This document shows positions 3,108 to 46,000 of a stretch of 64,000 nucleotides of DNA, one piece after another. Source of the stretch: a virus (taxonomy: Duplodnaviria > Caudoviricetes); the IMG/VR virus record IMGVR_UViG_3300016649_000355. One strand, 5' to 3'. Position 1 is the stretch's first letter, and each line of letters begins with the position of its first letter. Under the pieces are notes generated by a model that worked only from the letters and a program-made list of their open reading frames with translations, was not told the DNA's origin and did not search any database. Made by a program: the position numbers and the translations under genes.

Positions 3108-4304
3108 TTACTGGAATGTAAGATTCTGAACTGCGATCTCACCAACATAGTCAGCAGCGTTACCGAATGATGACGCTGTGTTTGTTAATTCGATGTAGCC
3201 GTATCTTGTCATGAATGATACGACTGGCTCGAATGTTGATGGGTCTAGAACAACACCGCTGCTCATTAAAGGAATATATGGGCAGTAGAATGCTGCTGCA
3301 TCAGTCTCGCTTGAACCTTTGTAACCAACTAGAACAGGTTGTGTGTCAGGAGCATATGAGTCAACGAATACACGCATTGCACCGTTCAATGTACCAACAA
3401 ACTTTGTATTTGTTGGAGCTTCGAATGTACCTTCTGTTGTTCTTGCGAAAGCAGAAGTTGTTGCGGACTGTAGAACTGTTAATGCTGCTGAAGATACAAC
3501 TGCCCAGTTACCAGCACCACGACGGGTACGCTGTGCAATCAAGTTTGCAACACGGTTGATTAGAACTGCTAATGCAGCATGCTCGTCACCAACATAAGTT
3601 GCTGTACCTGATACTGTTGCTTGGTTGTATGTGAACTCAGTTGAAGCTAGAGTGCGTAGAGATAATAGGATCTCTTGATCAATTTCAGCAGTGATCTCTT
3701 GTGCTAATGCTGCCATGATCTCTGCTTCAACATCGATACCGTGTTGACTCTGTGCATCTTGTGCAGCTTCAAATGTCCAGCGTGCCTGTAACTTACGGCT
3801 CTTGGCTTCAACTGCCTGACGCAAGATTTGTACGCTGATCTGCTTACCGCCGTTACCTTCTAATGATGCTGTATCAGCACCAGTATAATAGTTAGTGCTT
3901 GTTGCACTTGAAGGAACGCGCGAGTATGCCTGAGCGATTAAGAATGGACTTAATGCTTCTTGACCTGCTGTTACAGATGTTTGTGCTGCTGAGTTATCTG
4001 TTAAAGACTGTGCATATCGAACACGCAATGTGTGGATTTGACCAACTGGTCCTGTCATTGGCTGAACACCAACTAGCTCATTAGCGATAACTGTTGGCAT
4101 TACACGACGGATAACTGGAAGAATCACACGGTTAAGTGTTGCGATGTTTCCTGCTGTTGTTGTACCTGCTGAACTTTCAGCAAGTAACTGCTTTTTGGTG
4201 TTTTCTAAGATAACACCCATAGTTGAACGACGAGTTCCTTTTAAGCCTTCTAGTAGGGCCTCTTTGGTCTCGTTCCAACGGCTTTCTAAGAGTACTTTAG
4301 ACAT
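3108..4304 (-). CDS. gp23: Major capsid protein (T4 gp23 family)
   Basis: Motifs VIRRVMPTVIANELVGVQPMTGPVGQIHTLR, RKLQARWTFEAAQD, AFYCPYIPL, FMTRYG; AGGAG SD; follows protease and scaffold. Confidence 0.97.
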   Translation of the reverse strand: MSKVLLESRWNETKEALLEGLKGTRRSTMGVILENTKKQLLAESSAGTTTAGNIATLNRVILPVIRRVMPTVIANELVGVQPMTGPVGQIHTLRVRYAQSLTDNSAAQTSVTAGQEALSPFLIAQAYSRVPSSATSTNYYTGADTASLEGNGGKQISVQILRQAVEAKSRKLQARWTFEAAQDAQSQHGIDVEAEIMAALAQEITAEIDQEILLSLRTLASTEFTYNQATVSGTATYVGDEHAALAVLINRVANLIAQRTRRGAGNWAVVSSAALTVLQSATTSAFARTTEGTFEAPTNTKFVGTLNGAMRVFVDSYAPDTQPVLVGYKGSSETDAAAFYCPYIPLMSSGVVLDPSTFEPVVSFMTRYGYIELTNTASSFGNAADYVGEIAVQNLTFQ

Positions 4305-4331
4305 TTTATTTTTCTCCTAATCTATGTCAAA

Positions 4332-5432
4332 TTAAAGCCCTGCCAGACGCTTAATTTCGATGACATTATCTTTGCCCTCGAATTCAATTTCGTGCTTTTT
4401 GGCAGATTTATCACCAGTTACTTCAACCACGCTCTCACTAATCATAGCTTTTTCAGCTTTTTTACTAGCTCCAGTGTTTAGAACTGCTGGTAGATACTTA
4501 TCGAAAGATGCTTGCAATTTGGTTGTCTGCACACTTTCAAGTAAACTTCTCATTACTTTAGCTTTCTCTTCATTGAGAGTAGATAGTAGGTCACCCATTA
4601 CCTTCTCACGCTGAACAGATTCTTTGATAATGCGAACTTCACGATCCTTTGATTCAACTAATTTCTTAGTCTCTTCAGTTTGTTTCATTGCTTCGGAAAG
4701 TTGAGCTTCTTTCTGAGCTAACCTTTGCATTAGCTTCTTAGTTTCTGCCTTTTCACTTAAATGAGTGACAGAGAACTCTCCTGCAAATGCTTCAAATATC
4801 TTGCGTCCAAAATTATTTTCTTGGGCAACTTTGATATCTTCTTTAAGTTGTGTTAGTTCATTCCTTAAATGCGATGATACAACAGAACTCAATTTCTTAG
4901 AACTTTCAGCTACAAATTTAGCTTTAAGTGCTTCTAATTGTTTTCTGCCTTCAGCAACTAATCTGACCTTAGCTTCAACAACAGCTTGTTTATCTTGTGC
5001 AAACTCTTTGATTTCTCTTGCAAGTGCATGTACGATAAATTTCTCAAGCTTTTCTTGATTTTCTTTCTGAATCTTACGATCTGCGCGTAATTCTTTGATT
5101 TCTTCTGCTAACTTTGTTACCATAAAATCATTAAACTTTGCTGCATCTTCTTTAAGTTTCATTCTAGCTTTAACACGGTCTTCATTGATTGCTTTTTTCT
5201 CCTCTTGAAATTCTCTAATTTCTTGAGAAAGATTGTCAGTAATCATCTTATCAAGGGCTTCTACCATCACACTTCTATCATGTTCATATCTTTGTGCAAA
5301 CTCATCACGGAGTTCTGCACGAACTTGTTCACGGGCTTCATTGAGTTTTACTTCCCAAGCTTCGTTAAGAGCCTGAGAAACATCTTCGTTGATCAGTCCG
5401 CTTTCAAGTAATGGTTTGATAGCATCTAACAT
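4332..5432 (-). CDS. gp22: Prohead core scaffold protein (T4 gp22-like)
   Basis: Long Glu/Lys-rich coiled coil between protease and capsid genes. Confidence 0.85.
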   Translation of the reverse strand: MLDAIKPLLESGLINEDVSQALNEAWEVKLNEAREQVRAELRDEFAQRYEHDRSVMVEALDKMITDNLSQEIREFQEEKKAINEDRVKARMKLKEDAAKFNDFMVTKLAEEIKELRADRKIQKENQEKLEKFIVHALAREIKEFAQDKQAVVEAKVRLVAEGRKQLEALKAKFVAESSKKLSSVVSSHLRNELTQLKEDIKVAQENNFGRKIFEAFAGEFSVTHLSEKAETKKLMQRLAQKEAQLSEAMKQTEETKKLVESKDREVRIIKESVQREKVMGDLLSTLNEEKAKVMRSLLESVQTTKLQASFDKYLPAVLNTGASKKAEKAMISESVVEVTGDKSAKKHEIEFEGKDNVIEIKRLAGL

Positions 5433-5443
5433 GCTGATTCCCC

Positions 5444-6082
5444 TTATTTGATTTTAAGTTCTGTAATCAGACGAGTTACCTCATCCTTTAGGAACTTTTG
5501 AACTTTTTTGTCGCCTTTAGCTTCTTTAACAACATCCAACACTTTATGACCATTCTTCATATTCATGAGACTTTCATAAATTGCTTTTGGATATGCGTTA
5601 GGAGCACTTGGCTGAGCGACAATATCTACAGTGACGATTTCAAAGTCACTGACACGGCCATCTAGATCGTTTACATTACCACTACCACGACTAGATACAC
5701 CAAGTTTCACACCACTCTCCAACATAGTTCTTACTAATTGACCCATTGGAGTTGGAAGAATTTTTAATTTACCGTACCCATTAGGACCGTCCATCCACAT
5801 ACTAGTAATCATATGAGATACACGATCTAAATTAATCTTGAGATCATCAGGGTGATCTACTTCCCCTAGAACTGAAAAACCTTCTGTGATTTGCTTATTC
5901 AATGTATCAACGGCTGATTCGATCTCAGAAACGGGGTAAACACGCTCGTTTGCGTTCTTTACCCCACCCTGAATAAAGATACCCTTCATATAAAGGGTCT
6001 TAAAGTCACCGTCTTCCTTGACAGACTCTAGAACCATATTAGCTCTATCGAATGTCAAGTGTTCTTTGAGATACAAAGCCAT
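5444..6082 (-). CDS. gp21: Prohead core protease (T4 gp21 family)
   Basis: GIFIQGGVKNANERVYP, GEVDHP, LGVSSRGSG, DIVAQPSAPNAY motifs. Confidence 0.95.
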   Translation of the reverse strand: MALYLKEHLTFDRANMVLESVKEDGDFKTLYMKGIFIQGGVKNANERVYPVSEIESAVDTLNKQITEGFSVLGEVDHPDDLKINLDRVSHMITSMWMDGPNGYGKLKILPTPMGQLVRTMLESGVKLGVSSRGSGNVNDLDGRVSDFEIVTVDIVAQPSAPNAYPKAIYESLMNMKNGHKVLDVVKEAKGDKKVQKFLKDEVTRLITELKIK

Positions 6083-6096
6083 TTGCTCTCAGTTCC

Positions 6097-6894
6097 TTAT
6101 CTTGCTACTGGACTGTGTGTACCAGTCGCGCCATCTTTTGTTACTGGTTTTGGTGTTGAACCTAGATCCTGGCTCTTTTGTCCGGGAGCATTTTTGAATG
6201 ATCCCGCACCCTTTACACTTGTTTCGCCTTTAGTATAAGCATTGCTAGGATTCTTAGGTCCTGTAGGAACAGACTCATCATGACCTGAGAACTTGACAGG
6301 TTTGCTGTCCATCCCTTTTGCACCAGAATTAGCTGCTACCGTGCTTTTTGTTTGTACTCCGTTGTCACCGTGTGTCACGGCAACTTTTTGTAGCTGAACA
6401 GCTTCCATCATAGCTTCATCTTCTTCGCTGTCTGACATTTCTTCTTCGTCACCCATGTCACTACCACTCATGATCTCTTCGAATTCAGCCATTAATTCAT
6501 CTAATTTATCTTCGATCTTAACAACACGGTCTTCTAACTCTTCATTACCACCCATGTCAGCATGATGATCTTCATCGTCATGCTCGTCTTCTAAGTCTTT
6601 TGTTAAATCTTCACCGTCTTCTTCTGCTTCATCATCAAATTTAATATCAGCATCATCTTCTTCTGCTTCTGTCATTCCACCGGCTTCGTCAGCATTAATC
6701 TCATCAAGTAAATCACCTACTTGACCGCCCATGCCTTCTTCCATATCTTCTTCACCCATCATTTCTTCATCCATGATTGACTCATAGATTTCACGGGACT
6801 TTTCGACTACGATTTCATGAAAAAGTTCACGGGCCTGCTCTTCGTTCTCATTGATAATCATATCAATAAGTTGTTCAAATTTTCTGTTATCCAT
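6097..6894 (-). CDS. Highly acidic prohead core or internal protein (gp67/gp68 position)
   Basis: D/E-rich N-terminal two thirds, G/K/S/P-rich tail; lies between portal and protease; AGGAG SD. Confidence 0.6.
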   Translation of the reverse strand: MDNRKFEQLIDMIINENEEQARELFHEIVVEKSREIYESIMDEEMMGEEDMEEGMGGQVGDLLDEINADEAGGMTEAEEDDADIKFDDEAEEDGEDLTKDLEDEHDDEDHHADMGGNEELEDRVVKIEDKLDELMAEFEEIMSGSDMGDEEEMSDSEEDEAMMEAVQLQKVAVTHGDNGVQTKSTVAANSGAKGMDSKPVKFSGHDESVPTGPKNPSNAYTKGETSVKGAGSFKNAPGQKSQDLGSTPKPVTKDGATGTHSPVAR

Positions 6895-6931
6895 TATAAG
6901 TTTCTCCTGAATGAAAATGGCTTTGTAGATT

Positions 6932-6939
6932 TATTTATA
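6932..6939 (-). promoter_or_regulatory. T4-type late promoter, exact consensus TATAAATA, driving core-protease-scaffold-capsid
   Basis: Exact consensus in an intergenic region upstream of the AGGAG SD of ORF 6097-6894. Confidence 0.85.
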
Positions 6940-7022
6940 GCATAGTCATAAAAATAACTCTAAATGTGCTATTTTTTTGCGTTTTTTGTAATATAAATGT
7001 AAAAAACGCTTTGAGTGTTGAA

Positions 7023-7256
7023 TTATAGAGTCGGAGATTGACCTTCAGTAGATGCCTGAGCACCGTATTGTTCTCTTACTTTTTTTAAGTATTCTTTTTT
7101 TTCATAATTTCTAACATCTAGCATTTGTCTAAGCTTTCTTATTTGTTTCAATGTAAGTTTAGTTTTTCTAGATGCTTTCCATGAAGGTTTACTATTATCA
7201 GCCTTTACAGACTGATAACCTTCGATGGGAGGATCAAACATTTCAAATAATTTCAT
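7023..7256 (-). CDS. Small basic head-associated protein (77 aa)
   Basis: Directly downstream of portal; AATAAATA box 5 nt before ATG; amphipathic K/R-rich helix. Confidence 0.7.
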   Translation of the reverse strand: MKLFEMFDPPIEGYQSVKADNSKPSWKASRKTKLTLKQIRKLRQMLDVRNYEKKEYLKKVREQYGAQASTEGQSPTL

Positions 7257-7261
7257 AACCG

Positions 7262-7269
7262 TATTTATT
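7262..7269 (-). promoter_or_regulatory. Late promoter box (AATAAATA), 5 nt before ATG 7256
   Basis: Box plus spacing; no SD. Confidence 0.6.
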
Positions 7270-7270
7270 C

Positions 7271-12765: not shown

Positions 12766-13596
12766 ATGTCAATAGCTCACAATCCATTAAAACAATATTT
12801 CCGTAGACCTTCAGTTTATTTTAAATTACCTAGCGGAGGAAAAGGGTATAAATCAGGGGTAGTCAACATCCCTGAATCAGGGGAACTTCCTGTTTATCCA
12901 ATGACAGCGATTGATGAGATTACTACTAAAACTCCTGACGCATTGTTTAATGGTACTGCAATGGTAGATATTATTAAAAGTTGTGTCCCTGATATCAAAG
13001 ATCCCTGGGCCATTACCTCAGTAGATTTAGATGCAGTATTAATCGCTATCAGGGCAGCAGGTGGCGGTTCGGATCTAGAGATCGAATCAGAATGTCCGTC
13101 ATGTAAAGAAGTTTCAAGTTATGGTGTAAATCTGTCTGCAATGTTAGCAAACATGAAAGCAGGAGATTATGATAAAGATTTAAATATTCATGACCTCAGT
13201 ATTAAGTTTAGACCATTAACTTATAAAGAACTCAATCAAGCAGGACTTGCTCAATTTGAGATACAAAGAGTATTTTCCGGTATCGAAAGGATTGAGGATG
13301 AAGAAGAGCGAAACAAAAAAACACAAGACGCACTAAAATCAATCACATTACTTACCATGCAAGTCCTAGCACAAGCGGTTGAAGTGATCAGGACCCCAGG
13401 AACAGAAGTCACTGAACAAGAATTTATTGTCGATTTCCTACAAAATTGCGATAAAAATACATACATCGCTATCAGAGACTTTCATTCTAAACTTAAAGAA
13501 CAAACTGAATTAAAACCATTGCGCATCAAATGCGTAAGCTGCACACATGAGTATGATCAACCATTTACATTGAACCCAAGCGATTTTTTCGGTTAA
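12766..13596 (+). CDS. Baseplate hub / tape-measure assembly chaperone (T4 gp26-like)
   Basis: NPLKQYFRRP..LPSGG, VYPMTAIDE, DLDAVLIAIRAA motifs; CPSC and CVSC Zn ligands; AAAGGA SD; divergent from tape measure. Confidence 0.8.
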   Translation: MSIAHNPLKQYFRRPSVYFKLPSGGKGYKSGVVNIPESGELPVYPMTAIDEITTKTPDALFNGTAMVDIIKSCVPDIKDPWAITSVDLDAVLIAIRAAGGGSDLEIESECPSCKEVSSYGVNLSAMLANMKAGDYDKDLNIHDLSIKFRPLTYKELNQAGLAQFEIQRVFSGIERIEDEEERNKKTQDALKSITLLTMQVLAQAVEVIRTPGTEVTEQEFIVDFLQNCDKNTYIAIRDFHSKLKEQTELKPLRIKCVSCTHEYDQPFTLNPSDFFG

Positions 13597-13632
13597 GGCT
13601 TCTGTATTCCAATTATGAGGAACTACAGAAGC
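13584..13632 (+). promoter_or_regulatory. Candidate -1 programmed ribosomal frameshift signal: slippery heptamer T_TTT_TTC plus stimulatory hairpin
   Basis: Heptamer 13584-13590 in correct phase two codons before the stop; 7-nt spacer; stem GCTTCTGTA-TTCC / GGAA-c-TACAGAAGC (13598-13632). Confidence 0.75.
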
Positions 13633-13820
13633 TCATAGAAACCTATGAAAAAGATGTAAACAATATCAAAAAGAATTGTTTATCTCTAAGTTGGTATATG
13701 CGTGGCGGTGCTTCGTATGAAGATGTTCTGAATATGTCTTCATCCGAAAGAAATCTAATCGGCGAAATAGTAGATAGCAACTTAGAAGTCACCAAGAAAA
13801 GTCAATTGCCTTTCTTTTAA
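13590..13820 (+). CDS. gp51-like chaperone segment in the -1 frame (76 aa, RLRLLYSNYEELQKLIE...WYMRGGASYEDVLNMSSSER...KSQLPFF)
   Basis: Not in the ORF track. Frame is open from 13557 to 13820; first ATG is at 13698 with no SD, which would give only 40 aa. Confidence 0.7.
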   Translation, partial: RLRLLYSNYEELQKLIETYEKDVNNIKKNCLSLSWYMRGGASYEDVLNMSSSERNLIGEIVDSNLEVTKKSQLPFF

Positions 13821-13878
13821 AGTTGTCTTTCAGACAACTAATACCATCGCTCGTAAACTCGCTCGGTATTTCTTTTTT
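13821..13878. other. Twin hairpins at the convergence of two operons (possible terminator or ssDNA/RNA structure)
   Basis: AGTTGTC-tttca-GACAACT, then AATACC...GGTATT followed by TCTTTTTT on the plus strand; the second hairpin holds two GAGCGA copies on the minus strand. Confidence 0.55.
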
Positions 13879-14247
13879 ATTAAATCAATAGAACTTATTG
13901 CCGCTCAGAAGCCATGGTAGTGCTATTCAGCACTACCAATGGAAATTGCCATGCCCTTCTTCCATAGCTGCTTATACCCGTGATATCGCCTCTGTATGAC
14001 ATATCACGCTACCGGTTGCCCTTTAAAGTTTATGGTCTGTAGTGAAGCTATCACGATAAATTGTGACTCTTCGGCAACGCACATCCCGCGACATCAAAGC
14101 AGAGTATTCACGGGCTTGTCGAGGGTTCGCTTTGTCGATTGCCCTCTCGGTATTCCAAGGATAGGAATGTATCCTTGCTTTACTCCAGATCCGTCGGCAC
14201 AGCACTACCTGTACTTCCTCAAGGAGGTCTGACAACTCAGACAACAA
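13821..14247 (-). ncRNA. Putative large structured non-coding RNA or structured DNA element (~430 nt), family not recognised
   Basis: At least 8 clean stems; GC 47-53% in the two 60-nt lines counted, against AT-rich flanks; no credible ORF. Strand inferred from the upstream resolvase transcript and G-A pairing. Confidence 0.6.
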
Positions 14248-14250
14248 ATT

Positions 14251-14814
14251 TTATAGTACTACTGGGGTAGTTGTGATTTCTAATGGACTTGACTTGGTGT
14301 CGTTTGAGCCAGTGCAGTATACTTTAAATAATTCAGTATTGTGTTTGAAAAAATGATCGAAATCTATGATGAGCCAGTCTTTGTGACAGTTTGATGTGTA
14401 ATATAAAAATTGGTCCGTTACCCAGGTTCTATTGCTAGGTACAATTACGAATTTACCTTTTCTAGTGATCTTTAAAAATAGTATATTTAGATCACTTGAT
14501 TCGGCAACTGTCATCAATTGATCTAACCATGATTCTAAAACTTTGCAATCTCCGGACAATACAAGATTAAAGGGAAATTCTTTGTAATTTTTACATTCTG
14601 CGTTAAGGTGTTTGAATGACTCTCCTGGAACAATATCACCCTTGAAAGTGCGAATCTGCCCTTCGTGCAAAGTATTTTTTCTAGACTGATTTTTTCCGCC
14701 TATATAGGCACCAGAGCCCGGTGCCCGTATAAAACTTTCATTATAAGTCTCTGAAAGAAATTTTGCTACTTCTCTTTCGAAACTTGAACCCTTTGTTTTT
14801 TGTGGAGATGTCAT
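14251..14814 (-). CDS. Hjc-type PD-(D/E)xK Holliday junction resolvase
   Basis: KGSSFEREVAKFL, SGAYIGG, GDIVP, AECKNY motifs. Confidence 0.8.
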   Translation of the reverse strand: MTSPQKTKGSSFEREVAKFLSETYNESFIRAPGSGAYIGGKNQSRKNTLHEGQIRTFKGDIVPGESFKHLNAECKNYKEFPFNLVLSGDCKVLESWLDQLMTVAESSDLNILFLKITRKGKFVIVPSNRTWVTDQFLYYTSNCHKDWLIIDFDHFFKHNTELFKVYCTGSNDTKSSPLEITTTPVVL

Positions 14815-18535: not shown

Positions 18536-18557
18536 ACTTTCCTTTAAAATTTGAAAA

Positions 18558-18587
18558 ATTATAACATGCTTTGTAACAGAATTACAA
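18558..18587 (-). promoter_or_regulatory. Sigma70-type promoter for gp55 (TTGTAA-18-TATAAT with TGn extension)
   Basis: Perfect -10, extended TG, -35 one mismatch from TTGACA; AAAGGA SD downstream. Confidence 0.65.
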
Positions 18588-18623
18588 GCTAACGGGAAAG
18601 AAAAAAGGGAAAAACTACGCCTT

Positions 18624-31070: not shown

Positions 31071-34000
31071 ATGGCTACGAGAATTAGAACGCTTAATTTT
31101 TTACCGGAAGTTTTTAAGACCCCAACTAATGCACAGTTCTTAAATGCAACATTAGACCAGATCGTATCACAGCCTGCAGTCAGAAGAGTTGAAGGTTACA
31201 TAGGTAGTAAATTGGGTTATGGAATAAATGCCAAAGATTATTATGTAACAGAACCTACTAAAGTAAGAACGGATTACCAGCTTGATCCCGGAATCGTCAC
31301 AACAAAAATCGATGAAAGTACGGCTAAAGATTTTATCTCATATCCCGGTTTATTAGATAGTATCAAGTTAAATGGCGGCATCACAGATAATAACAGTAGG
31401 TTATTCAAGAGTCAGATTTATTCGTGGGACTCATTTACCGATCTAGATAAAATAATAAACTTCAATCAATACTATTGGTTGCCTGACGGCCCCGAAGCAG
31501 TGACAGTAGCAAGCGATACGATTTATAGTACCACCGATTATCTTGTTACAGATGTGATAAATGGTTATCAAATAAATCCTTTAGGTCAGTCAGGCGGAGC
31601 TTTAAACCCAACATTGACACTTTTAAGGGGCGGTACTTATAGATTTTCAGTAAATCAACTCACACAATTTTGGATTCAAGGCGAGCCCGGGGTAACTGGA
31701 TTCGATCCTTCCCAACCTAATATACAAACTAGAGATATATTAGGAGTAGAAAATAATGGCGCCACAAATGGAATAGTAACTTTTACAGTACCTAGTAAAG
31801 ATGCACAAAGTCAGTATAATTTTCCAGGAAATAATATTGTCGATGTAGTGAGTACCAGTACTTTTGCAGAAATTAATGGTAGACGAATAAGTGATATAGG
31901 TTCGATTGATGGAATAACTAGTCTCGATGGGTTAACTGTTATGTTTTATGAGACCGGTTTACCTAATGAAGTTGGGTATGTGTCAAAATTTTATGATGCG
32001 ACCCCCTATGATAATAACGGTGGATTCGTATCTCCCATAACTATACAAGTAACAAATACATCAAGCACTGGAAATTTAATTACCTGCGATTCTACTGCTA
32101 ATTTATCAGTTAATTCTTCGATAACTTTTAGTGGCGTACCATTTGGCAACCTAACAACGGGTACAATTTATTATGTGCTTACTGTAGATAGTGCTACAGA
32201 ATTTACTATTTCTGAATCGATAGGGGGTTCACCCGTCGCATTAGTTAATGCTAGTGGAACCCTGACAGGTAATGTCAACCAAGGTTTATTTGAAGAGGGT
32301 TATTACACAACTGTAAATCAATATTTTTATAGAATTACTTATGTAGGTGATCTTTCTGATCCCGTGATAAGTTTGACTCCTGAAGTTGAAATACCGATAA
32401 ACGAAAAAATTACTGCTAAATTTGGAACAGAATTTATTAATAGAAACTTTTATAAGAGCAGTGCTGGTAATATAATAATTTATCCTTATCTGAGTGCTAT
32501 ACTTGATACCCTTTATTATCAAGATGGTACGAGTGATAATAAAGTAGGAGTAATTAGATTAATCGAAAGCAATGTAACAAATAGTATTGATGTTGAAACT
32601 GATATCTTAGGCAAGGTAAATTATACAGCACCCAACGGTGTTGTATTTACAAATGGATTGAAGGTGGAATTTAATGGAAGTATAGAACCAGCATCTTATT
32701 TGACGGGTGAATACTATGTAGAGGGTGTAGGTACTGCCATAGAACTGATACCAACAAATCAATTAATTGCGCCAGAACCATTTACAGTTGGAAATTTTAT
32801 TCCCTATGATACAACCCCCTATGACATAGGAAATTATGATAGTAATCTGTATATCCCGGCTACGCCCGATTATATAACTATCGCTAGAAATTCTATCAAT
32901 AAAAATGCATGGTCAAGAAGTAATAGGTGGTTTCATGTCGATGTGATTAACGCAACAGCACAGTATAATAACAACCCTGATTTAGCGACATTATATGCAA
33001 CTGCTGAAGCCAAAGCTAAAAGACCTATTATTGAATTTTATCCAAATCTTGCCTTATTCAACTCAGGTGTTATAGGTAAAGATTTTATCGATTTTATAGA
33101 TTTCAGAACTACGGATGCCTTTTCACAGGTAGCCGGTCAGCAAAATTATTATCCTGATGTCACTGCATATTCGACCTATAGTGCAAGCATTACCGGGGTC
33201 ACCGCAAATATTGTAAGAAGTGTTACCGACACTACCGCATCGGGAAATTTTATAACATGCTCTAGTACAACAGGATTTCATGTGAACGATAAAGTGGTAT
33301 TTACTGGTACTGTGTTCGGTGGAGTAATCGTTAATGCAACATATTATATCGAAAGTATCGTTGACAGCACCAAATTTACAATTTCTTCAGAGCAGAATGG
33401 CGAGGTATTTGTATTGTCAACAGCTTCAGGCACAATGACCGCGACCATTACTCCCTTGACTACAACAATTACAGTCTCGTCAGATGCGATAACAGGAAAT
33501 ATTGCAGTTAATCAATATATCACAGACTCCACTAATCTATTACCCAGAAACTCTATTGTGACAGATATTTCAGGAACATCAACATTAACTTTAACAGTTA
33601 CTTGGAATACTCCTGAATTTTTCACATCGTCAATTAACTCATCATCTTTGATATTTACTGATACTACCAATGACAATTATGCGTTATTTGAGGGGTCCCG
33701 TGTAGTATTCGCTAATGATACTGATCCCGAAGTTAGAAATAAAATTTATGTATCCAGATTTTCTACTGTTACAGGAACTTCTACTCCAGTCATCACATTG
33801 ACACCTGCTCAAGATGGTTCAGTACTGCCTAAAGATCAAACTGTTGCTTTCAGGGGCTACAACAATCAAGGTAAAGATTTTTATTTTGACGGCACAGACT
33901 GGAATCTGTCACAACAAAAAACAGATGTTAATCAACCGCCACTATTTGATATATTTGACGAAAACGGTATAAGTTTCGGAGATAGTGAAATATATGTTGG

Positions 34001-37000
34001 TACATCATTTCAAGGAAACAAACTCTTTGCCTATGGAATAGGTTCAGGCATCGACGATATATATCTTGGTTTTCCAATAAGATATAGCTCTATAGACAAT
34101 GTTGGTGATATAAATTTTGATGTTTCTTTAAATTTAGATACTTTTGATTATGTAAGAAATAGTCAACCCATCACGCAAAAAGTAAACACTGGATATGTGT
34201 ATAATTATACCACTAGAACTATTTTTGAAAGGGAATTGGGCTGGCAAACTGCTATCGCAGATAGCACACAATATCAGGTTTTTCAATTTCCATATGTATT
34301 AGGTCAAGTAAGCCTCTCTTTTACTTGTGACATCGCTAAATTATCAGATGATGATTCTGCATGGCCTACAATACAAGTTTTTAACAATAACAATTTTTTA
34401 TCTTCAGATGAATATGTAGTAGATACTACCTCTACTACCACAATTATAACACTTAATCAAGCACCGACTGAGGATACTGTCATCGAAATTTTATTATTGA
34501 GTGATCAGGTAAGCAATCAAGCTTATTATACTATTCCAGTCAATCTTTCAAATAATCCATTGAATGGTGATCTAACAACAGCAGATTTAGGCGATATTCG
34601 CGGGCATTATCAAAGTATTTTTTATAACAATCCCGACACCACGGGTCCCGTGTTTGGCGCTAATAATTACAGGGATCTAGGAAACATCGTACCGTACGGT
34701 ACAAGAATCATTCAGAATAGTGCAAGTTTAGTATTACCCGGGCTATTTTCAAGAAATTCTCAATACAATTTATCAAATGCATTGTTGTTTAATAGTCGTC
34801 AATATATTACTTTTAAAACATTATTGGTAGATACAATCAATAAAACTGCTTATGAGCAAAGATATAATCCAGCTGAAATTTTAGATGCCGCCTTAGATGT
34901 GATCACTTCCTATAAAGTTGATACAGAACCATTCTTTTGGAGTGATATGATTCCATCTAAAGCAGCTTTTATAACTAATACATATTCATTTGCAAACAGC
35001 CTCGATGTTAGTATATATCCATTAAGTAGAATTTATAATTTTAATACTGCAAATTATTACGGTGTATTAGTATATCTTACCCGTACAGTCGACGGCTTTA
35101 CTTTCACGCAGCAATTGATAAAAAATGTTGATTATACAATCAGTGAAGACAGTCCTTCATTAACGGTGACATTGGACTTACTAGCAAATGATCAGATCAC
35201 GATCAAAGAATACAATCAAACATATGGTAGCTATGTCCCTAATACTCCAACTAAGTTAGGATTATATCCATCTTTTGTTCCTGAAGTCGTACTTGATTCC
35301 GCCTATACCGTGCCCACTTATTTTATAAGGGGCCATGATGGCTCATACACAAAACTTTATGGAGACTATATTCCTGAAACTAACACACTAATTGATTTTA
35401 GAGATCAAGGTCTATTGGAATTTGAAAAGCGTATCTATAATAATTTAAAATTAAGCAGTGCAATCCCCATTAATTTTTATGATGTGATCCCCGGATTTTC
35501 TAGAGATACAGATTACACCTGGGATGAAATCATGCAAATTTATTCACCTTTATTTTTAACATGGGTGGGCGAGAACAGAATTGATTATAAGACTCAATTA
35601 TACAATTCAGGAAATCAATTTACATATAACTATTCAGATTCAGGGAATAAAGTCAACAAAAAACCCATACAACAAGGTTACTGGAGAGGAGTTTATAGTT
35701 ACTTTTATGATAGTGTGAATCCCGATACCGCCCCCTGGGAAATGATAGGTTATAGTGATCAGCCCGGCTGGTGGACATCTAGATATGGTCCTGCCCCATA
35801 CACTAGCGATAACCTAATATTATGGAACGATTTAGCACAGGGTATAGATTATAATGACGGAATTCCTAGGGTATTACCTCAATATATTAGACCTGAATTA
35901 TTACAAATTTTACCGGTAGATTCTAATGGTAATTTATTGAGCCCATTCAATTCTATCGTTGGAAATTACAATGGAAATACATTTAGAAAAGACTGGAAAG
36001 TGGGGGATGACAGCCCGGCGGAATTCAGCTACAGAAGAAGTAGTTCATGGCCATTCGATCTAATGCGCCTCTATTCTCTCACACAGCCTGCTAATTTCTT
36101 TAATCTGGGAGTAGACCTTGACAATTATAGATATAGTGATGAATTCGATCAATACCTAGTTAATGATAGAAGCCATTTGATATTGAATCAAATTCAAATC
36201 TATGGCTCGGGCACCGCCAAAACTAGTTACATAAACTGGATAGTTGATTATGAAAAACAATTAGGAGTTAATTCTACTGAGGCGATCACCGACCTGTTAA
36301 ACAATGTAGATGTAAGATTAGTCTATAGATTGGCAGGCTTTAGTGATAAAACCTTGCTTAAATTTTATGTTGAGAAAGGCACACCTAATAGTAGAAATGC
36401 TAGCTTATTGATTCCTGATGAGAGTTATACTGTATTATTGTATGATAATCAACCATTTGATAGAATCATATATTCGGGGGTCGTGGTACAAAAAACAAAC
36501 GATGGTTACAAAGTATACGGAAATTCTCAGACAGAAACTTACTTTAGAATCAGCAAACCTGAAAACAACGGTAAATTCATCAATCTTGATGTAGAAGGTG
36601 TAAAAATAAAATTAGCAACTGATTATACTTCGCAAACTATTCTTGTTCCCTATGGGTATCAGTTTGGTAGCATACAAGAAGTTTCTCAGTTCCTAATGAG
36701 TTATGGTAACAGGCTTCAACAGCAAGGGATGAAGTTTGATAAGATAGAAAACGGCATTGAAGTTACATGGCAGCAGATGGTTTTAGAATTTGCTTATTGG
36801 TCTCAGACTGGCTGGGAAATTGGAAGCATAGTTACAATCAATCCGGCAGCCACACAAATTCAGATCGAAAAAGATAGCTATGTTGTCCAGCCATTGACGA
36901 TTCAAAGACAGAATTTTATATTGAATCAAAATTTATATCCCATTCAGACAAAAGATTTGAATATCCTCAGGGATGAGACATTGTTCAATGTCGAACCGTT

Positions 37001-40000
37001 GAATCCGGGAGATGCTTTAAGTTATGGTCAATTTGATATTTCAAACTTTGAGCATGGTATAGTATTTGATAATGTTACACTGTTTAATGATGTAATTTAT
37101 AATCTTGTAACAGGTCTCAGGCAAAATCGCATATTGTTGAGGGGCACCAAGACAGCAGAATGGAACGGTACAGTAACTACTTCAGGATTCATTCTCAATC
37201 AAGATAATATCTTGACCTGGCAACAAGGTGTAAAATATACGAAGGGTGCTATTGTAAAATATAAAAACAAATACTGGACTGCGATTAAAATTATCGAAGC
37301 TAAGACAGTTTTTGATGAACTAGATTGGAAAGTTACAGATTACAATGAGATTCAAAAAGGTCTATTACCCAATAGTAGCACAAGATCATATGAGAGTACA
37401 TTGTATTTTAATTGCAATAGAACAAATCTAGAAAGAGATGGAGATCTATTAGCATTCTCGTTGATAGGTTATAGGCCCCGTGATTATCTAGCATTAGCTG
37501 ATCTTACCGATGTCACGCAAATCAATGTATATAAAAACTTAATTAAGATGAAAGGTACCCGTGACGCAGCAAGGGCATTTAAAGGTGCTACCTTACCCCA
37601 AGGTGGAATTGATTATGATATCTATGAAAATTGGGCGATAAAATCTGCTGAATTCGGTGGTGTGCTAAGTGATAATTTTGTTGAATTTAAAGTCAACGAA
37701 AAATACATGACAGGAAATCCCAGCATTGTTGGTTTAACTAATGGTGTATACACAGAAGGTGTGCAGCAGGAAGTTCCAATTTATTCATTGTATAATTACA
37801 ATCAACCTATAAACAACCCATCTATTTTAACAACTATTCCTGTAGATACCCCTGACATATTATATCCGTCGGCAGGATATGTAAACTACAACGATGTAAA
37901 GATGTCGGCGTATTACTACGCTAACATGCCAAATGGTGTGGATAAAAATAATCAATTAGTGCCTATATCTGATCTTTATGTGCGCGATTACATATGGCTT
38001 GCTGATTACTTAGGTACTTGGCAGGTGTATACTCCTGCTTCAAATGGGCAGATTATTTTTGTTAAAAATAATTTAAATGGTACTGCCACCATACAATTTG
38101 CCGAACCCCACAATTTGAACCAATACGGCATATTTGCAATAGTCAATTTTAATATTAATGTGAATGGCTATTATGTTGTTCAGCTTGTGGTTGACCCTTA
38201 TAGAGTAATAGTAAATTTAAACTTAAACACATCTGTGCGTGAGATTTCAGGTCAAGGTATCGCATTGAACTTTGAAAATCAGCGCGTAGCTGAACCATCT
38301 GATATCATAAATTTAAATCTGTTAGGTTCTGAATTTGCGAAAAATAAAGTATGGGTAGATACAAATAATGATGGTTCGTGGGCAGTATATAGAAAGTCAT
38401 TAAACTATCAATATGAAAAAGAATTTTTAAAAGACAATACACAAACATTTGGTAGTGCTGTGGCTTACACCAATGAATTGGGTTATCTGATAGGCGATGC
38501 CGATGATGGTAATGTGTATAGATATACATTCAGCCCCTTAGTAGAAGATTACACTGTCACTCAGACATTAACTTTTGGTCCGTCATTTGGAACCACGATA
38601 GTCCACGAACAAGAAATATTTGTTATAAGTGAGCCTACAAATACTCCACGAGTTCATATTTACGAATTACTGAATACGGCTGCAAGCAAAGATTTAACAT
38701 CTTACCAATCACCTATATCACGGCCTGGACCAGTGACTGGAGAATGGGGAACAGCATTAGCATTATCAGGTGATAAGAAATGGCTATACATCTCAGCATA
38801 CGAGGATGCATTAGTATATGTGTACCGTTTATCTCAAATTAGCAATGAGTATGAGTTCTCAAACACTATCGACGGTACCGCATTAGGACTAACTGGATCG
38901 GATAAATTTGGCTATAGCATAACAACTGATTATTACGGTGACACTGTGGTGATCGGAAGCCCCAATGAAGACTATGATGTGACTACTGATAACTGGGGTC
39001 GTGCTTATGTATACTACAGATCGACACAGAATTTTGAAGCACAGTATACAAGCATACCTAATGTTGCGCAGACATTTGCTCTTGGTTGGTCTCCGACAAC
39101 CACAACAATAACTGTAACTGCCACAACCGCCAGCAACGATAGATTTACATGTGCCGATAGCAGCTTATTTGATGATGATCAACCGGTATTATTCTCAGGA
39201 ACTATTATTGCTGACAGCAATGTAAGTCCCGACACCGTATATTATATATATGACAAGCCCACCGGCACAACCTTTAGACTTACTACTGTGAGGGGAGAAT
39301 TAGCGAATATAGTTGACATATTAGCTAACGGTTCAGGGTCTATGACTATGACTGTACAGGACACGCCCTTATATGTATCAGTTAATGGAATATTGGTGGA
39401 AGATAATAACTACGGCGTGATAGGCAGTACCTTCTATTACACCGGGTCACTGATTGCAGGTGATATTGTTAATGTCAGCGGAAATGAATTTGTAAAATTA
39501 CAAACATTGACTACAGAAACTACGCCTAGGGTCGGTGTGCATTTTGGTCAAAGCTTAGACACCACTGGATTCGGTATGGAAATTATCGTAGGTGCGCCAT
39601 TTGAACTGAACACACAAAATCAAGAAGGTGCAGCATACAGATACACCAATGGCGGTGAAAGATATGGATTAGTGATAGGCACTGGGGTTGTTGATGTTAC
39701 GGCTACTAGAATATTGTTGATAAATGGATTCAGTGTAACTATTCCTGTAGGCAGTGCTAGCGTAGCCGCAAATGCAATTAACGGATCAGGAGTGTCAAAT
39801 GTTCAAGCACTTGCAAATGCTGATGGCACATTAACTATCCAATTAATAAACAGCAATCTCGCACAGGTTAATAACAAATTAAGTTTAGCAGCATTTTCTG
39901 AAACTACCCTCAATGAATTGGGAATAAATTTATACACACAAACACAAATCATTAATTGTCCCCATGTGCAAGGTCCTACACAATTTGGATCTACAGTAAA

Positions 40001-43000
40001 ATACGGCACACAGGGATCTGTTGTGATTAGTGCCCCTGCAGGAACTAGATATGCTGGCACTACCTTTGATTTTACTGACGATGAAAACTTAGATAACGAC
40101 ACAGTATTCGATAATAATGCTACGCAATTTGTAGATGCTTATCCTAATGCAGGTGCGGTATATATGTTTGATTATTTGTCGAACTATAATGAGAATTTGT
40201 CTAATCCTGGAAAATATGTTTATGCACAAAGCGTAAACGCTAGAAATCAAACATATGGATTGCAACCATACTATGGACATGCACTTGATTTTTATGACAA
40301 CCACATTTTGATTGGTACTCCCGAATTCAATGAAGGAACAGATTACGGTCAAGTTGTTTCTTATGAATCCTTGACATCAGCTACGGATTGGGAAATTTAC
40401 AGGCAGTCATCAGCAATCGTTGATATACAAAAAATAAAAAATATACAACTGTTCAGTGCTGAAACCAACGAAACATTAGAACATTTAGACTATATCGACC
40501 CCTTGCAAGGAAAAATATTAGGATCAGTGAGGCAGAATATCGATGTAGTTTCAAATGTCGATCCAGCATACTATACAAATAGTGTTGACAGAAATATCGG
40601 AGTTATCTGGGGCAAGGATAAAGTTGGTCAAACATGGCTCAATACCTCTAATATGAAGTATGTAAATTATCATCAGGATAGTGTCGAATACAATTCAAAA
40701 TATTGGGGAACATTATTTCCTGGATCTGATCCTGCAGTATATACCTGGATAGAAAGCAATGTTACACCTGATCAATATGCTGGCCCGGGAACGCCCTATG
40801 ACATAACGAGCTATACGACAGGTTATGTAACTAACAACATTCAAACAGTTAGCCCTGTTTATTATTTCTGGGTAAGAAATACAAACACTGTTTATACCCT
40901 AGAAGGAAAAACTTTAGCCGATTCTATTTTAGAAAGTTATATATTAAATTCTAAAGCATCTGGAATCGCCTACTTTGCCCCATTACTACCTAATGTATTT
41001 GCCTTATATAATAGTCAATCCTATATAAATGCAAATGATAGCGTACTCCACATAGGTTATTCTACTGGATCAGGGAATGTAGAAACTCATAATCAATATA
41101 GTTTGATTCGTAGTAATTATGCAGACGATTTCTTACCGGGCTTACCTGGAGTAGGAAATGTTACGAGACCTGAATCGCTGTACGATAGAATGTTAGATAG
41201 TTTGAGCGGAGTAGATGAAGCCGGCAATGTTGTTCCAAATCCTTATCTACCTAAGGCCGTTCAATTGGGGGTGTTAGCAAGACCACGACAAAGCTTTTTC
41301 TTGAATAGATTTTTAGCATTAAAGAATTACTTTACCTTCGCTAATGACATTCTAGCTCAATATCCTATCACCGAGATCAGAGAAAATGCATCATTCTTGT
41401 TCGCTGAAGGGGAATTTTTTAACACACCCGACTACTGGGAATATATCAATTACTGGGCTACAGGGTATGATAACAATACTAAATCAGCATTGCAAGTACA
41501 AATTTATGCAGACCTATTAACATTATCAGTTGCAGAAGGAACTATTGTAAGAGTAGCTCAGAATGGCGATGGCAAAGCAGAAACATACATCTATCAAGAG
41601 TCAATATGGATAAGGATAGGTCTTGAAAATGGAACAATAAGGCTTAAAGATTCATTGTGGGACTATGCAGCAGCACGAACAGGCTACGGAGATAACTTTT
41701 TTGACACCGATGTATTTGATTTTTATCCAAGTGAAGAAACCAGATATATTATCCGCGCGCTAAATGAACAAATTTATATCGATGAATTAGCATTATTTAG
41801 AAATACCAGTTTGATATTATTGTTTGAATATATTCAAAGTGAAACCACAGAAAGTCAAAATTATCTGCCGTGGTTGAACAAAACCTCATTGATCGATGTA
41901 TCTCACACAATCAGAGAATTATTACCATTAGAAGTATTTCAGTCTGATAATCAAGACTTTCTGTCAGGATATCTCAATGAAATTAAACCATATCATGTTG
42001 TAATAAAAGATTTCTTGTTTAAATATACCGGCGAAAATGTTTTTGAGGGTGACATAACTGATTTTGATTTACCTGCTCAATTTAATTTCAACCAAAACCA
42101 ATTTATAACTCCACAATTAGTTTATAGCAATCCAAACGGGATCAATCAATATACTCCAGATTCTACCATATGGCAAGAAAGTGCATACAAATCTTGGTTT
42201 GAAAATTATGGGGTCAGCATCACAGGTCAAGATGATGTGTTGATGACCACTCTAGCATCTTATCTGACATTAAATAGCACAGCATTCGTGGTGGATAACG
42301 CAAATGGTTTCCCGATAAACGGTGTGATAAGAATTGGCACAGAAGAAATTGGATATAGCAGTGTCGATAGAAATTTAAATGTATTGACTGGATTAACCAG
42401 AGGAGTTAATGGAACAACTGTTTCTACTCACCTTCCGGGCGAACAAATTTATATGGATCTGCCTGCGGTAACAGTATTGAATGGCGGTCGCGGGTATTCA
42501 GAGCCGCCAAAAGTAACCGCATACATAGATACTTCGATATATCCTGAGCCTAGAGACCCTGCAATTTTACAAGCAAATATGGATCTAGATACAGTATTGA
42601 GCGTCACTGTTATAGATCCGGGGTCAGGGTATGCTGTGTTACCCGAGATAAGGATAGATCCTTCTATCTCGATAATTTTTGCTAGCACCGAAGTAAGCAC
42701 AGTTACTAACACGATCACCCTTTATGCTCCATTATTACAAACAGGTGATTTAGTAAAATACATTGCAGGGGAAGATTCAACAACAATAGGTGGTTTAGAA
42801 AATAACCAATGGTATTATATTAATGTATTAGAAACTGTTCCCACTGTTTCTATTGCGCTTTACACCAACTACTCTGGTGCGATAAATGATGAAGATAGGG
42901 TTACATTCTATACTTCAGGTACAGGATCAAATCATAAGATTGAAGTAGGAGCAAGGGCAACATCTATCACTTCTGCTGCGCCAATAAGAGAAAATAATAT

Positions 43001-46000
43001 AGCCCTGAAATTTGATAGGACCACATATACTTCTCAGGTCACCGACTGGGAAGCAGGAAGATTTTACGGAGCTTTTTATGCAGGTGCCTACACAAGCGAA
43101 GATTTATCTAGCTCGTCCGTGCAATTATACAGCGAATATCCACCAATTGACAACATACTGGCAAGTAATCAAGGATTGGTATTAGAAATAACCGATGTAG
43201 AAAATGATCAAACATTAACATGGTCATCCTTTGTTCGTTCAGTAGAACAAACTATCGGGGGAGCGTCTGATATAATAAGACTAGAATATGATTCCACCGA
43301 ACCAAATGCATCGGGGTCTACAATTGGTTTTTATGTTGGAATGCCTATCAAGTTTGTAGGCGCGGTAGTAGGTACGAATATAATAGATAGCCAAACATAT
43401 TATGTTCATACTATAGTGAACGACAGTGATTTTAAGATCAGTAGTTCTGTTAGCGGATCCGTACTCAACCTCAACTCAGTAACTATAGGGGCAGCAGGAT
43501 TATCATGCTATGTAGGTGAAGTCACGAATGTCGCGGTGATCACTGCTAATTACCCCGGCATAATGTCTGCTACTGCCACATCTTCTTTAAATAATGCGAT
43601 CACTATACCAAAATCAGTAGTGGGAACAGGCGGCACAATAGGTTTTTACACAAATCTCCCTGTATTTTTTACCAATACTGTGTTCGGTGGTATCATACAA
43701 AACGAGATTTATTATGTAACTACCGTTATCGATGGCGAAACATTTACATTATCGGAAACTCAAAATCCGTTAATATTAACAGTCACTAATACCACATCAT
43801 CAACAAATGTCGTGACAGTATCATCTACAGAAAATCTTTCTATAAATGAACCGTTGATATTTACAGGAACAACATTTGGTGGAATCACGGCAGGAACATT
43901 ATACTATATCAATAGTATTGAAAGTTCGACTACATTTAAGATATCAACAGAATTTAATGGACCTGTGTTGACACTAACAACTGCATCAGGTACTTGCATA
44001 TTGACTAGTCAGGCTGATGTTGTGCAATTAACAACTGCTACCGGCAACATGACAATCAATGTTAATCTTCCTGTAAGTCCAGGCCAAGTAAATGGACAAG
44101 AATTTACTTTATATCAGACATCAGAAGAATATCCCGGCGTCACGGGCGCCGAAAGTAATCTGATCGAAAGAATCATCGAAGTGGCTATCGGTTCCGGGGT
44201 AAATATATTACCAATTAAAACATCAAGTGGAGCACTAACAAATGTTTATGTAAATATGCCTGTAAGATTTTCTGCTGCACTGGGAGGTTTATCGGCTGCT
44301 ACAACTTATTATGTTAAAACGACTGGTACTATTGAAGTAGAAGTAACAAATACTTCAAGTTCAACGAATCGGTTGACTACTCTAAGTACAGCCGAATTAT
44401 ATGTTGGGATGTCAATCATATTCTCGGGTAATGTGTTTGGAAATATTTCTGAAAATACTCAATATTATGTATTAAGCATCGTTAATGCTACACAGTTTAC
44501 CATTTCTACATCAATATCCGGTTCAGCATTAATATTGACTACCAGTTCAGGTTCAATGACTGGTACAGGAGAAACATATATTCAAGTTTCAGCGACACTA
44601 GGCGGATCAGTTTTCGCGCTTAGTGCAGGTAGAAACTATGGTCCAATCACCGCCACGCAATATCCTAACCCTACAGGCACCGATGATCCTGAATTTGCTG
44701 TAAGGTATATATTAGGGGGGTATAGCGTGATCATCACCAATGATAGTTCTGGTTACGCTACAACGAACACTATCACGATCCCGGGCACATCGTTGGGTGG
44801 ATTGACCCCAGATAACGATCTCACATTGACTGTTAGTGATATAGGTAATAATGGTGAAATAGAATCACTGATCGCTTCAGGTAATCCAGCCGGTATAGCA
44901 AAACAATATTATCTAAAAGTTATATCTCCCAATCAATTTGAAGTTTACTCAAATCAATTAATGACAGTTCCGGTAACTGGTATAGGATTCAACTATCAAG
45001 GATATAAGACAACAACTGTTTTAGAAACACAGTCTGCCACTGATATAATTACTGTGGATAGTACTACAGATTTTGAAGTGAATGACGCAGTGGTATTCAG
45101 TGGGAATGTGACAGGAGGAATCACCCCATATCAAACATATTATATTCTTGATAATGTTAATTTTACCCCTACTACTTTTCAAATTAGTACTGTCCCCGGC
45201 GGAAGTGTATTTGGATTATCAACTGCTTTATCGCAGAATTATACTATGGCAAAAGCTGGCAGTTATGCATATCTACCCGAACCCTTCTATTTCAATCAAA
45301 GTATCGTTAAGTATAACAACAGGGTATATGTCTGTATCATCTCAAATAATGACGACGAATTTATTTTTGGTAAATGGGAATTATTAAGTCCCGGAGATAG
45401 AAGATTAAATGCATTAGATAGAATTGTTGGTTATTATCAACCCACTGTAAATATGCCGGGCTTAGATTTGACACAACTGGTAAATGGAATTTCTTACCCT
45501 AATCCAATTTATCTAGACAATCCTTTCGAACCCGACCAGCAATTTACATATGACACTCTACTATCAGATCAAGAATTTTATCCAACCGAGATCGACATAA
45601 AAGGTATTGTTTATGATGGGTCAAATTACTTAGGTCCATCAGATAGCCCAGAGTATTCAGCAATAGTTTCAAGCCCAACTACACAGTCGTGGAGCATAAA
45701 CACCTTGTCTAATCAAGTGTTAAATGCTACAGATATTATCTATGCAAATGGATTATATGTGATCACTACGAACAATAGTGCAACACCTATTTATCGTAGT
45801 AATAACGGAATAAGTTGGACCACTAATGGTCAGTTCACTCCTTATGGGTACAGTGGATATGATGATTTACCCTACGATGTCACTTCATTAAGTGTTTCGT
45901 CACTTTCTCTCAATAGTGTTGCATATGGGTCGAACAAATTTATTGCTGTTGGAGAAAATATTATTTCTTCTACTGATACCTATTCATGGACAGAAAGATA

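Follow-up and report, generated by a model that had tools for sequence, protein, structure and literature searches.

A conserved pseudoknotted RNA, and probably a non-coding RNA gene, between two convergent genes of freshwater T4-like jumbo phages

Introduction

What is encoded in the long gap between two convergent genes of an uncultured T4-like jumbo phage, and what might it do for the virus? The stretch of DNA considered here, 64 kb in length and referred to throughout as the window, originates from such a phage, and encodes a T4-type portal protein, a gp55-like late sigma factor, and the SbcD/SbcC-like proteins gp47 and gp46. The gap in question follows a gp26-like gene. It was described in an earlier reading of the bare sequence (hereafter, the original prediction) as an ornate, non-coding element of about 430 nt, with repeats at its ends and a helix capable of switching partners. 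A large phage RNA, a packaging-associated RNA, or a structured replication origin were suggested as its possible identities.

Comparison with relatives of this phage answers the first part of the question with some assurance. That the locus specifies a conserved, structured RNA is, in our judgement, close to certain. An element is indeed present, but the unit that is conserved spans approximately 347 nt (13896–14242, minus strand) and not 430. It is probable, at a lower level of confidence, that this unit is a single-copy gene belonging to a new family of pseudoknotted non-coding RNAs, some 350 nt long, carried by uncultured freshwater T4-like jumbo phages.

Few large RNAs have an architecture of ribozyme grade, and every class added so far has led to new biology. 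The RNA described here belongs, as a single-copy gene, to the core set of a widespread group of giant lake phages, and it is better conserved than its protein-coding neighbours. In most members, it also has a position that is occupied by the same base at two separate sites, for which ordinary base pairing offers no explanation. At about 350 nt, it is a well-defined object for study by cryo-EM, chemical probing and pull-downs, and may reveal how replication starts in jumbo phages or how RNA controls host or phage machinery. Annotators should no longer leave this gap blank.

Genomic context

The RNA locus lies between a gp26-like gene on the plus strand and a gene for a PDDEXK_15 nuclease on the minus strand. 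The components of the locus are as follows.

12766–13596, plus strand: gp26-like baseplate hub gene, with a conserved extension in the -1 frame to 13820
13821–13870, between the convergent genes: two conserved hairpins, with compensatory changes in both
13871–13895, no strand assigned: AT-rich spacer of variable length
13896–14242, minus strand: the structured RNA
14248–14255, minus strand: A/T box TATAAAAT, overlapping the nuclease stop codon
14251–14814, minus strand: PDDEXK_15 nuclease gene, 187 aa, with the PHROG name ‘RusA-like resolvase’

The RNA is oriented like the nuclease gene and the recombination genes 46 and 47, and the latter two precede it. When the minus strand is read, the element begins about 8 nt beyond the nuclease stop codon (14251–14253), in keeping with the claim that it starts immediately after a ‘resolvase’ gene. 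The higher GC content reported for the gap is also borne out (0.47–0.49, versus 0.31–0.38 alongside). The gap is not, however, the only long non-coding one in the window, as had been stated, since another of about 375 nt, lacking any ORF of at least 100 aa, occurs at 6895–7270.

Distribution and conservation

Relatives of the locus were collected from IMG/VR by two routes. Protein-guided searches with the two flanking genes yielded 125 loci, and a scan for an internal 19-nt pattern yielded 118 further loci, all of which share a single order: gp26, RNA, and the convergent nuclease gene. According to nhmmer searches of IMG/VR, approximately 230 jumbo-phage loci possess the RNA (235 profile matches, comprising 121 distinct full-length sequences), always at the same position between the gp26-like and nuclease genes, and almost all loci with enough space for the element match the profile. 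Proteins encoded on either side are 55–70% identical to those of the window, and blastn aligns the interval 13896–14250 at 70–79% identity. At the nucleotide level, identity to the window averages 0.75 in the RNA, versus 0.68–0.69 in the flanking coding sequences.

Four IMG/VR genomes rated as complete, which range from 348 to 525 kb, contain the RNA, each of them exactly once. A covariance model of the core junction (R1, 152 positions) likewise detects a single copy in the 64-kb window, at 147 bits, and a single copy in L170, a 12-kb contig that was excluded when the model was built, at 133 bits. The same model detects no RNA in a distant relative of 364 kb (G005), and none is found in the distant gp26 relatives L119 and L121–L125.

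Searches of isolates and of cellular genomes define the known range of the family more narrowly. When the gap was compared by BLASTN with 50,697 records of isolate phages, no match was returned, and the 5-kb neighbourhood matched these phages only in SbcC-like genes, namely those of jumbo phages infecting Pseudomonas and Sinorhizobium. The whole record of phage 121Q was rejected as a carrier, its best R1 score not being significant (E 0.24, 13.6 bits). Among 185,579 prokaryote species genomes, the 19-nt pattern scan produced 48 chance matches, none of which contained the RNA.

The L170 contig differs from the common arrangement. Its PDDEXK nuclease gene is absent, and genes for radical-SAM, SPASM and SegE-like GIY-YIG proteins are located between the gp46-like gene and the RNA (3708–7161), while the RNA and the A/T box upstream of it are retained. 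Because the RNA has been kept where the nuclease gene is missing, we infer that it is independent of the nuclease encoded next to it. The endonuclease gene probably arrived by insertion next to the highly conserved RNA gene.

Secondary structure

The structure combines an RNAalifold prediction from 67 sequences with a mutual-information scan that compared all positions with one another in 121 sequences. It comprises 88 pairs in 15 helices (alignment A3), which are 89.3% paired, versus 31–44% when the partners are slid by one to three columns. Both sides have changed in 62 of the 88 pairs, and the covariation score is 0.336 versus 0.154 in shuffles; any of the observed measures is reached by none of 500 shuffles. 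Such a test of covariation in syntenic relatives had been proposed with the original prediction, as had a comparison of folding energy with dinucleotide shuffles, which over the 430 nt gives z values of -3.3 for the plus strand and -4.1 for the minus strand. Almost all of the top mutual-information pairs are Watson-Crick pairs, and both pseudoknots are among them.

The fold consists of a 5' domain (P1–P4), followed by a compact four-way junction (P5–P8), which two pseudoknots tie to the strand beyond P9. A 3' module, in which the invariant P10 stands between two short boxes, completes the unit. The elements are listed below.

14227–14242, minus strand: P1, the 5' hairpin, variable in sequence and conserved in pairing; four covarying pairs in the 121-sequence alignment, with G-U 35 versus A-C 2
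CUCC 14223–14226 with GGAG 14183–14186, minus strand: P2, both sides invariant, enclosing P3; 99.3% paired in 67 sequences
14197–14214, minus strand: P3, a variable hairpin; 6 of 6 pairs changed on both sides
14156–14177, minus strand: P4, a variable hairpin with large insertions in some relatives; 7 of 7 pairs covary
14010–14152, minus strand: core four-way junction, in which P5 closes P6, P7 and P8
14148–14152 with 14010–14014, minus strand: P5; 99.4% paired, 1 pair changed on both sides
14121–14146, minus strand: P6; 99.7% paired, 4 pairs changed on both sides
14081–14119, minus strand: P7; 95.4% paired, 9 pairs changed on both sides
14015–14078, minus strand: P8; 96.8% paired, 4 pairs changed on both sides
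P7 loop CUGCUU 14097–14102 with AAGCAG 13968–13973, minus strand: pseudoknot A, 6 pairs; 5 of 6 pairs changed on both sides, 100% paired in 67 sequences, one of the top mutual-information signals
14034–14036 (P8 internal strand) with 13976–13978, minus strand: pseudoknot B, 3 pairs; 99.5% paired, 3 of 3 pairs covary, pair 230-290 with MIp 1.00
13980–14007, minus strand: P9, a hairpin of 8–10 pairs, 7 of them covarying; G-U 67 versus A-C 2
13945–13955, minus strand: box A GGGCAUGGCAAU, whose base at 13954 is the same as that at 13904 of box B in most members
13912–13942, minus strand: P10, a 13-bp hairpin of nearly invariant sequence; 94% paired
13896–13905, minus strand: box B AGCGGCAAUA, the limit of family conservation

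Most of the stems that had been picked out by eye are real, as compensatory changes in the relatives maintain their pairing. The stem placed at 14228–14243 corresponds to P1, that at 14156–14177 to P4, that at 14121–14147 to P6, that at 14015–14078 to P8 with its inner hairpins, that at 13979–14008 to P9, and that at 13916–13937 to the core of P10; the two hairpins at 13821–13870 also show compensatory changes. Other parts of the original prediction are not conserved. A stem at 14218–14227 is not conserved, and its CUCC pairs instead with the invariant GGAG 40 nt away, forming P2. The switch between two exclusive folds relied on a second copy of CAGCACTACC, which is part of the variable hairpin P3; many relatives have a quite different hairpin there, so that the switch is not a conserved feature. 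Similarly, the direct repeat of TCAGACAAC at both ends, and the pairing of these ends through AGTTGTC/GACAACT, are confined to this window, the corresponding hairpins of relatives being unrelated in sequence. P2, P5, P7, both pseudoknots, and the strand of the RNA had not been recognised.

Within 14183–14226, the invariant CCUCCUUGA is situated directly after a hairpin and resembles the anti-Shine-Dalgarno end of 16S rRNA. The helix that it forms with GGAG could be a mimic of the Shine-Dalgarno duplex, or simply a structural helix.

The two boxes of the 3' module display a relationship of a different kind. Position 13954 in box A is the same base as position 13904 in box B in 104 of 121 members (G/G in 63, U/U in 23, C/C in 15 and A/A in 3), and this is the strongest non-Watson-Crick signal in the mutual-information scan. 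Even relatives that are 96% identical change both positions together, as seen for L082 versus L044 and for L075 versus L074. The 3' parts of the boxes co-vary as well, appearing as GGCAAU, GGUAAU, GAUAAU, GGCAUGU, AGCAGA, and others. Words of at least 7 nt are shared between the boxes in 17% of molecules, versus 5% when box A and box B are drawn from different members. Box A has an insertion of 1–2 nt relative to box B.

No complement of the boxes occurs within the RNA or in the 3 kb on either side. The P8 strand GUUGCC was considered as a partner for GGCAA and rejected, as it is invariant while the boxes vary. Two arrangements are possible: a symmetric pair of identical bases in locally parallel strands, or base pairing between box A and the template strand at box B, as in ColE1 RNA II.

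Strand, ends and expression

The mutual-information helices contain 212 G-U wobbles if the minus strand is read, versus 32 for the plus strand, and P9 is predicted on the minus strand only. Together, the excess of G-U pairs and the minus-only P9 indicate that the RNA is read from the minus strand. A coding signal is absent, and stop-free stretches are equivalent to those of shuffles (68 versus 62 codons). The lengths of insertions and deletions are mostly not multiples of three (865, 231 and 147 for 1, 2 and 0 modulo 3, respectively), and conservation is without 3-base periodicity.

Upstream of P1, a sigma-70-type scan of the window reports ATCACA and TAAAAT separated by an 18-nt spacer, with 9 of 12 matches and a weak -10 score. 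Among 108 distinct relatives, 75 have a similar A/T hexamer that ends 3–7 nt upstream of P1, versus 35 of 108 in a control stretch, and the A/T box persists in L170 despite the different gene upstream (SegE-like GIY-YIG). There is no clear -35 element or MotA box at this site, which also does not fit the late TAAATA-type motif of this phage. The A/T box is possibly a -10 promoter element, or else part of a 5' leader of the RNA. From such patterns, we infer that a promoter of the early or middle type precedes the RNA.

At the other end, conservation across the family ceases after box B (13896). The 30 nt that follow average 77% A+T in 120 relatives, versus 55% in the body of the RNA. Beyond them, the second of the two intergenic hairpins (13840–13866) precedes a T-run when the plus strand is read, which identifies it as the terminator for the gp26-like gene. 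In the minus-strand reading, only UUU comes after the last hairpin, and no good intrinsic terminator is found past box B; judging from their sequence, the hairpins at 13821–13870 may also weakly terminate the RNA transcript.

No RNA run is listed with the exact sequence of this phage. Two freshwater metatranscriptome studies include contigs of 95–292 nt that lie on the RNA of relatives (80% likeness), and over the nuclease gene there are only short matched pieces, at 14625–14670. Being assembled contigs from relatives, which carry no information on strand, ends or level, they give a weak hint that the RNA is expressed. In one contig, the sequence gives way to an Illumina adapter precisely at 13954.

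Comparison with known RNAs

A search of the 64-kb window with the 4227 models of Rfam 15, which had been among the checks proposed, found no match at gathering scores. These models include GOLLD, ROOL, OLE, raiA, HEARO, RNase P, tmRNA, SRP, 6S, and ribozymes. In 19 relatives, Rfam returned nothing other than a chance histone stem-loop, and ARAGORN reported no tRNA or tmRNA in the window. A group I intron was rejected, with 15.8 bits versus a cut-off of 50, a chance-level score from a match mostly outside the RNA. The Polynucleobacter-1 RNA motif (RF01718), known from freshwater and estuary metagenomes (Weinberg et al. 2010, PMC2864571), was rejected too: it matched neither the region at E ≤ 10 nor the 19 members at E ≤ 1.

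The RNA nonetheless resembles in kind the orphan large ‘ornate’ RNAs of phages. It shares with GOLLD and ROOL its large size, intricate and pseudoknotted fold, carriage by phages, and position away from any regulable gene downstream. It differs from them in having no Rfam 15 match, either at gathering scores or at E ≤ 10, and in being a strictly single-copy, syntenic core gene of one lineage, equipped with twin boxes. It is also shorter, at about 350 nt, while GOLLD and ROOL measure approximately 580–800 nt. The identification of the element as a large, ornate phage RNA distinct from ROOL and GOLLD is strongly supported by its conservation, its covariation, and the lack of both a coding signal and an Rfam match. 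The end repeats and switchable helix by which it was originally characterised are not conserved. Nothing points to a role in packaging, which had been offered as an alternative.

Possible functions

The mode of action that we consider probable is that of a stable, folded RNA acting in trans. Such an RNA would be transcribed independently from the -10-type A/T box over the nuclease stop codon, with its 5' end at or near P1 and its 3' end at or beyond box B, and the downstream hairpins (13821–13870) would serve as terminators for both convergent transcripts. It would act as a scaffold for phage or host proteins, or as a catalytic or ligand-binding RNA, and its working surfaces would be the invariant nucleotides of the junction, the CCUCCUUGA/GGAG helix, and P10. 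Among the points that count against a trans-acting fold is the presence of the twin boxes, which the simple version does not explain. Fremin et al. 2023 (PMC10690425) give 10,006 candidates, and the family may already be one of them without a name.

The boxes are the starting point for a second proposal, which is rather unlikely, namely that the RNA is the pre-primer of an R-loop replication origin comparable to ColE1 RNA II or to oriF and oriG of T4. The folded RNA would bring box A to the template strand at box B, the two boxes being the same in sequence, and the resulting RNA-DNA hybrid would be stabilised at the AT-rich stretch downstream and then processed into a primer. The likeness to those origins lies in a folded transcript, an upstream segment that equals downstream sequence, and an AT-rich region that follows. 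RNA-template pairing would require just what the boxes exhibit, which is the same base at one position in 104 of 121 members and co-varying 3' parts, and the length-variable, 77% AT-rich stretch after box B and the single copy per complete genome are in accord with an origin. T4 oriF lies in uvsY, beside genes 25 and 26; the RNA similarly adjoins the gene 26 homologue, and its locus comes after recombination genes 46 and 47.

Several observations are difficult to reconcile with a pre-primer. Cumulative GC skew, which had been recommended as a check for an origin, gives no signal at the locus in a complete relative (G004), and strand switches in that genome do not mark it either, the nearest being 5.5 kb away. 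In contrast to the ColE1 and T4 origins, neither an antisense regulator nor a MotA-type middle promoter is seen. The two pseudoknots and a conserved fold of around 300 nt exceed what known R-loop origins need, and we know of no pseudoknots in ColE1 RNA II or in the RNAs of T4 oriF and oriG. Moreover, the 1–2 nt insertion in box A disturbs its correspondence with box B, and T4-type phages replicate mostly by recombination. In mechanism, an R-loop pre-primer is the one concrete analogy. It is similarly doubtful, though conceivable, that the boxes represent a copying or anchoring step, as in the pre-primer of a single origin, or a rare parallel-strand motif with a symmetric same-base pair, within a new fold of ribozyme size. 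If the former were true, phages of 350–525 kb would possess a type of origin that depends on RNA architecture and is new in T4-like viruses.

It is quite unlikely that the RNA is instead a cis-acting 3' untranslated element of the gp55-gp47-gp46-nuclease operon, giving protection from exonucleases and insulating the convergent units from each other. The start of the RNA 8 nt past a stop codon in the direction of the operon would suit such a role, as would its location between convergent genes, the hairpins at its far end, and the fact that a strong independent promoter is not evident. However, a stabiliser would need far less than a fold of 350 nt that has two pseudoknots and numerous invariant bases outside helices. 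The RNA is also better conserved than the gene it would serve, and persists after exchange of the upstream gene. Finally, the metatranscriptome contigs cover the RNA of relatives and only short pieces of the nuclease gene, although this is a weak argument.

A further proposal, that the RNA is a guide or scaffold of the adjacent PDDEXK nuclease within an RNA-protein nuclease, is very improbable. In almost every locus, the RNA and the nuclease gene are neighbours with a common orientation, but the whole gene block is syntenic and this adjacency is therefore of little weight. No hypervariable, unpaired, guide-like segment was found, the variable parts being hairpin stems; nor do the boxes have a complement nearby. 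As L170 retains the RNA on a 12-kb contig from which the nuclease gene is absent, and a guide-like segment is missing, a working partnership of RNA and nuclease is unlikely. That the gap holds a protein-coding gene, small or in decay, or else a miniature mobile element bounded by terminal repeats, is hardly credible and is refuted as far as sequence analysis can do so. The gap does contain ORFs of 78 and 74 codons and, in the window, repeats at both ends, but it shows no coding signature, is without end repeats in relatives, is single-copy and always syntenic, and has a P10 motif that is not dispersed in the window.

A trans-acting folded RNA remains our preferred reading, and its putative promoter can be set against the other promoter-like sequences of the window. 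TAAATA-type boxes, similar to T4 late promoters, occur before many structural genes, and promoter-like boxes are located upstream of 6894, 9058, 12710, 12766, 19139, 27185, 27688, 51375 and 53604. The exact T4 late promoter TATAAATA is not enriched in the window, and none lies upstream of the RNA. Upstream of the late-sigma gene (18536–18600) stand TAGCTTGTAA and, after a gap, TGTTATAAT, an arrangement like that of a T4 middle promoter.

Other features of the window

A single ORF of 6495 codons (31071–50558) takes up 30% of the window. The gp26-like hub gene adjoining the RNA locus ends in GAT TTT TTC GGT TAA, with a slippery site at 13584–13590 (region 13557–13820). The -1 frame is open for 76 codons more, and its first start codon lies only in the second half of this extension. 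Relatives (loci L081–L125) down to about 35% protein identity retain the extension as well as the T_TTT_TTC heptamer, with AAT TTT T variants in two of the most distant. By its sequence, this looks like a conserved programmed -1 frameshift in the gp26-like gene.
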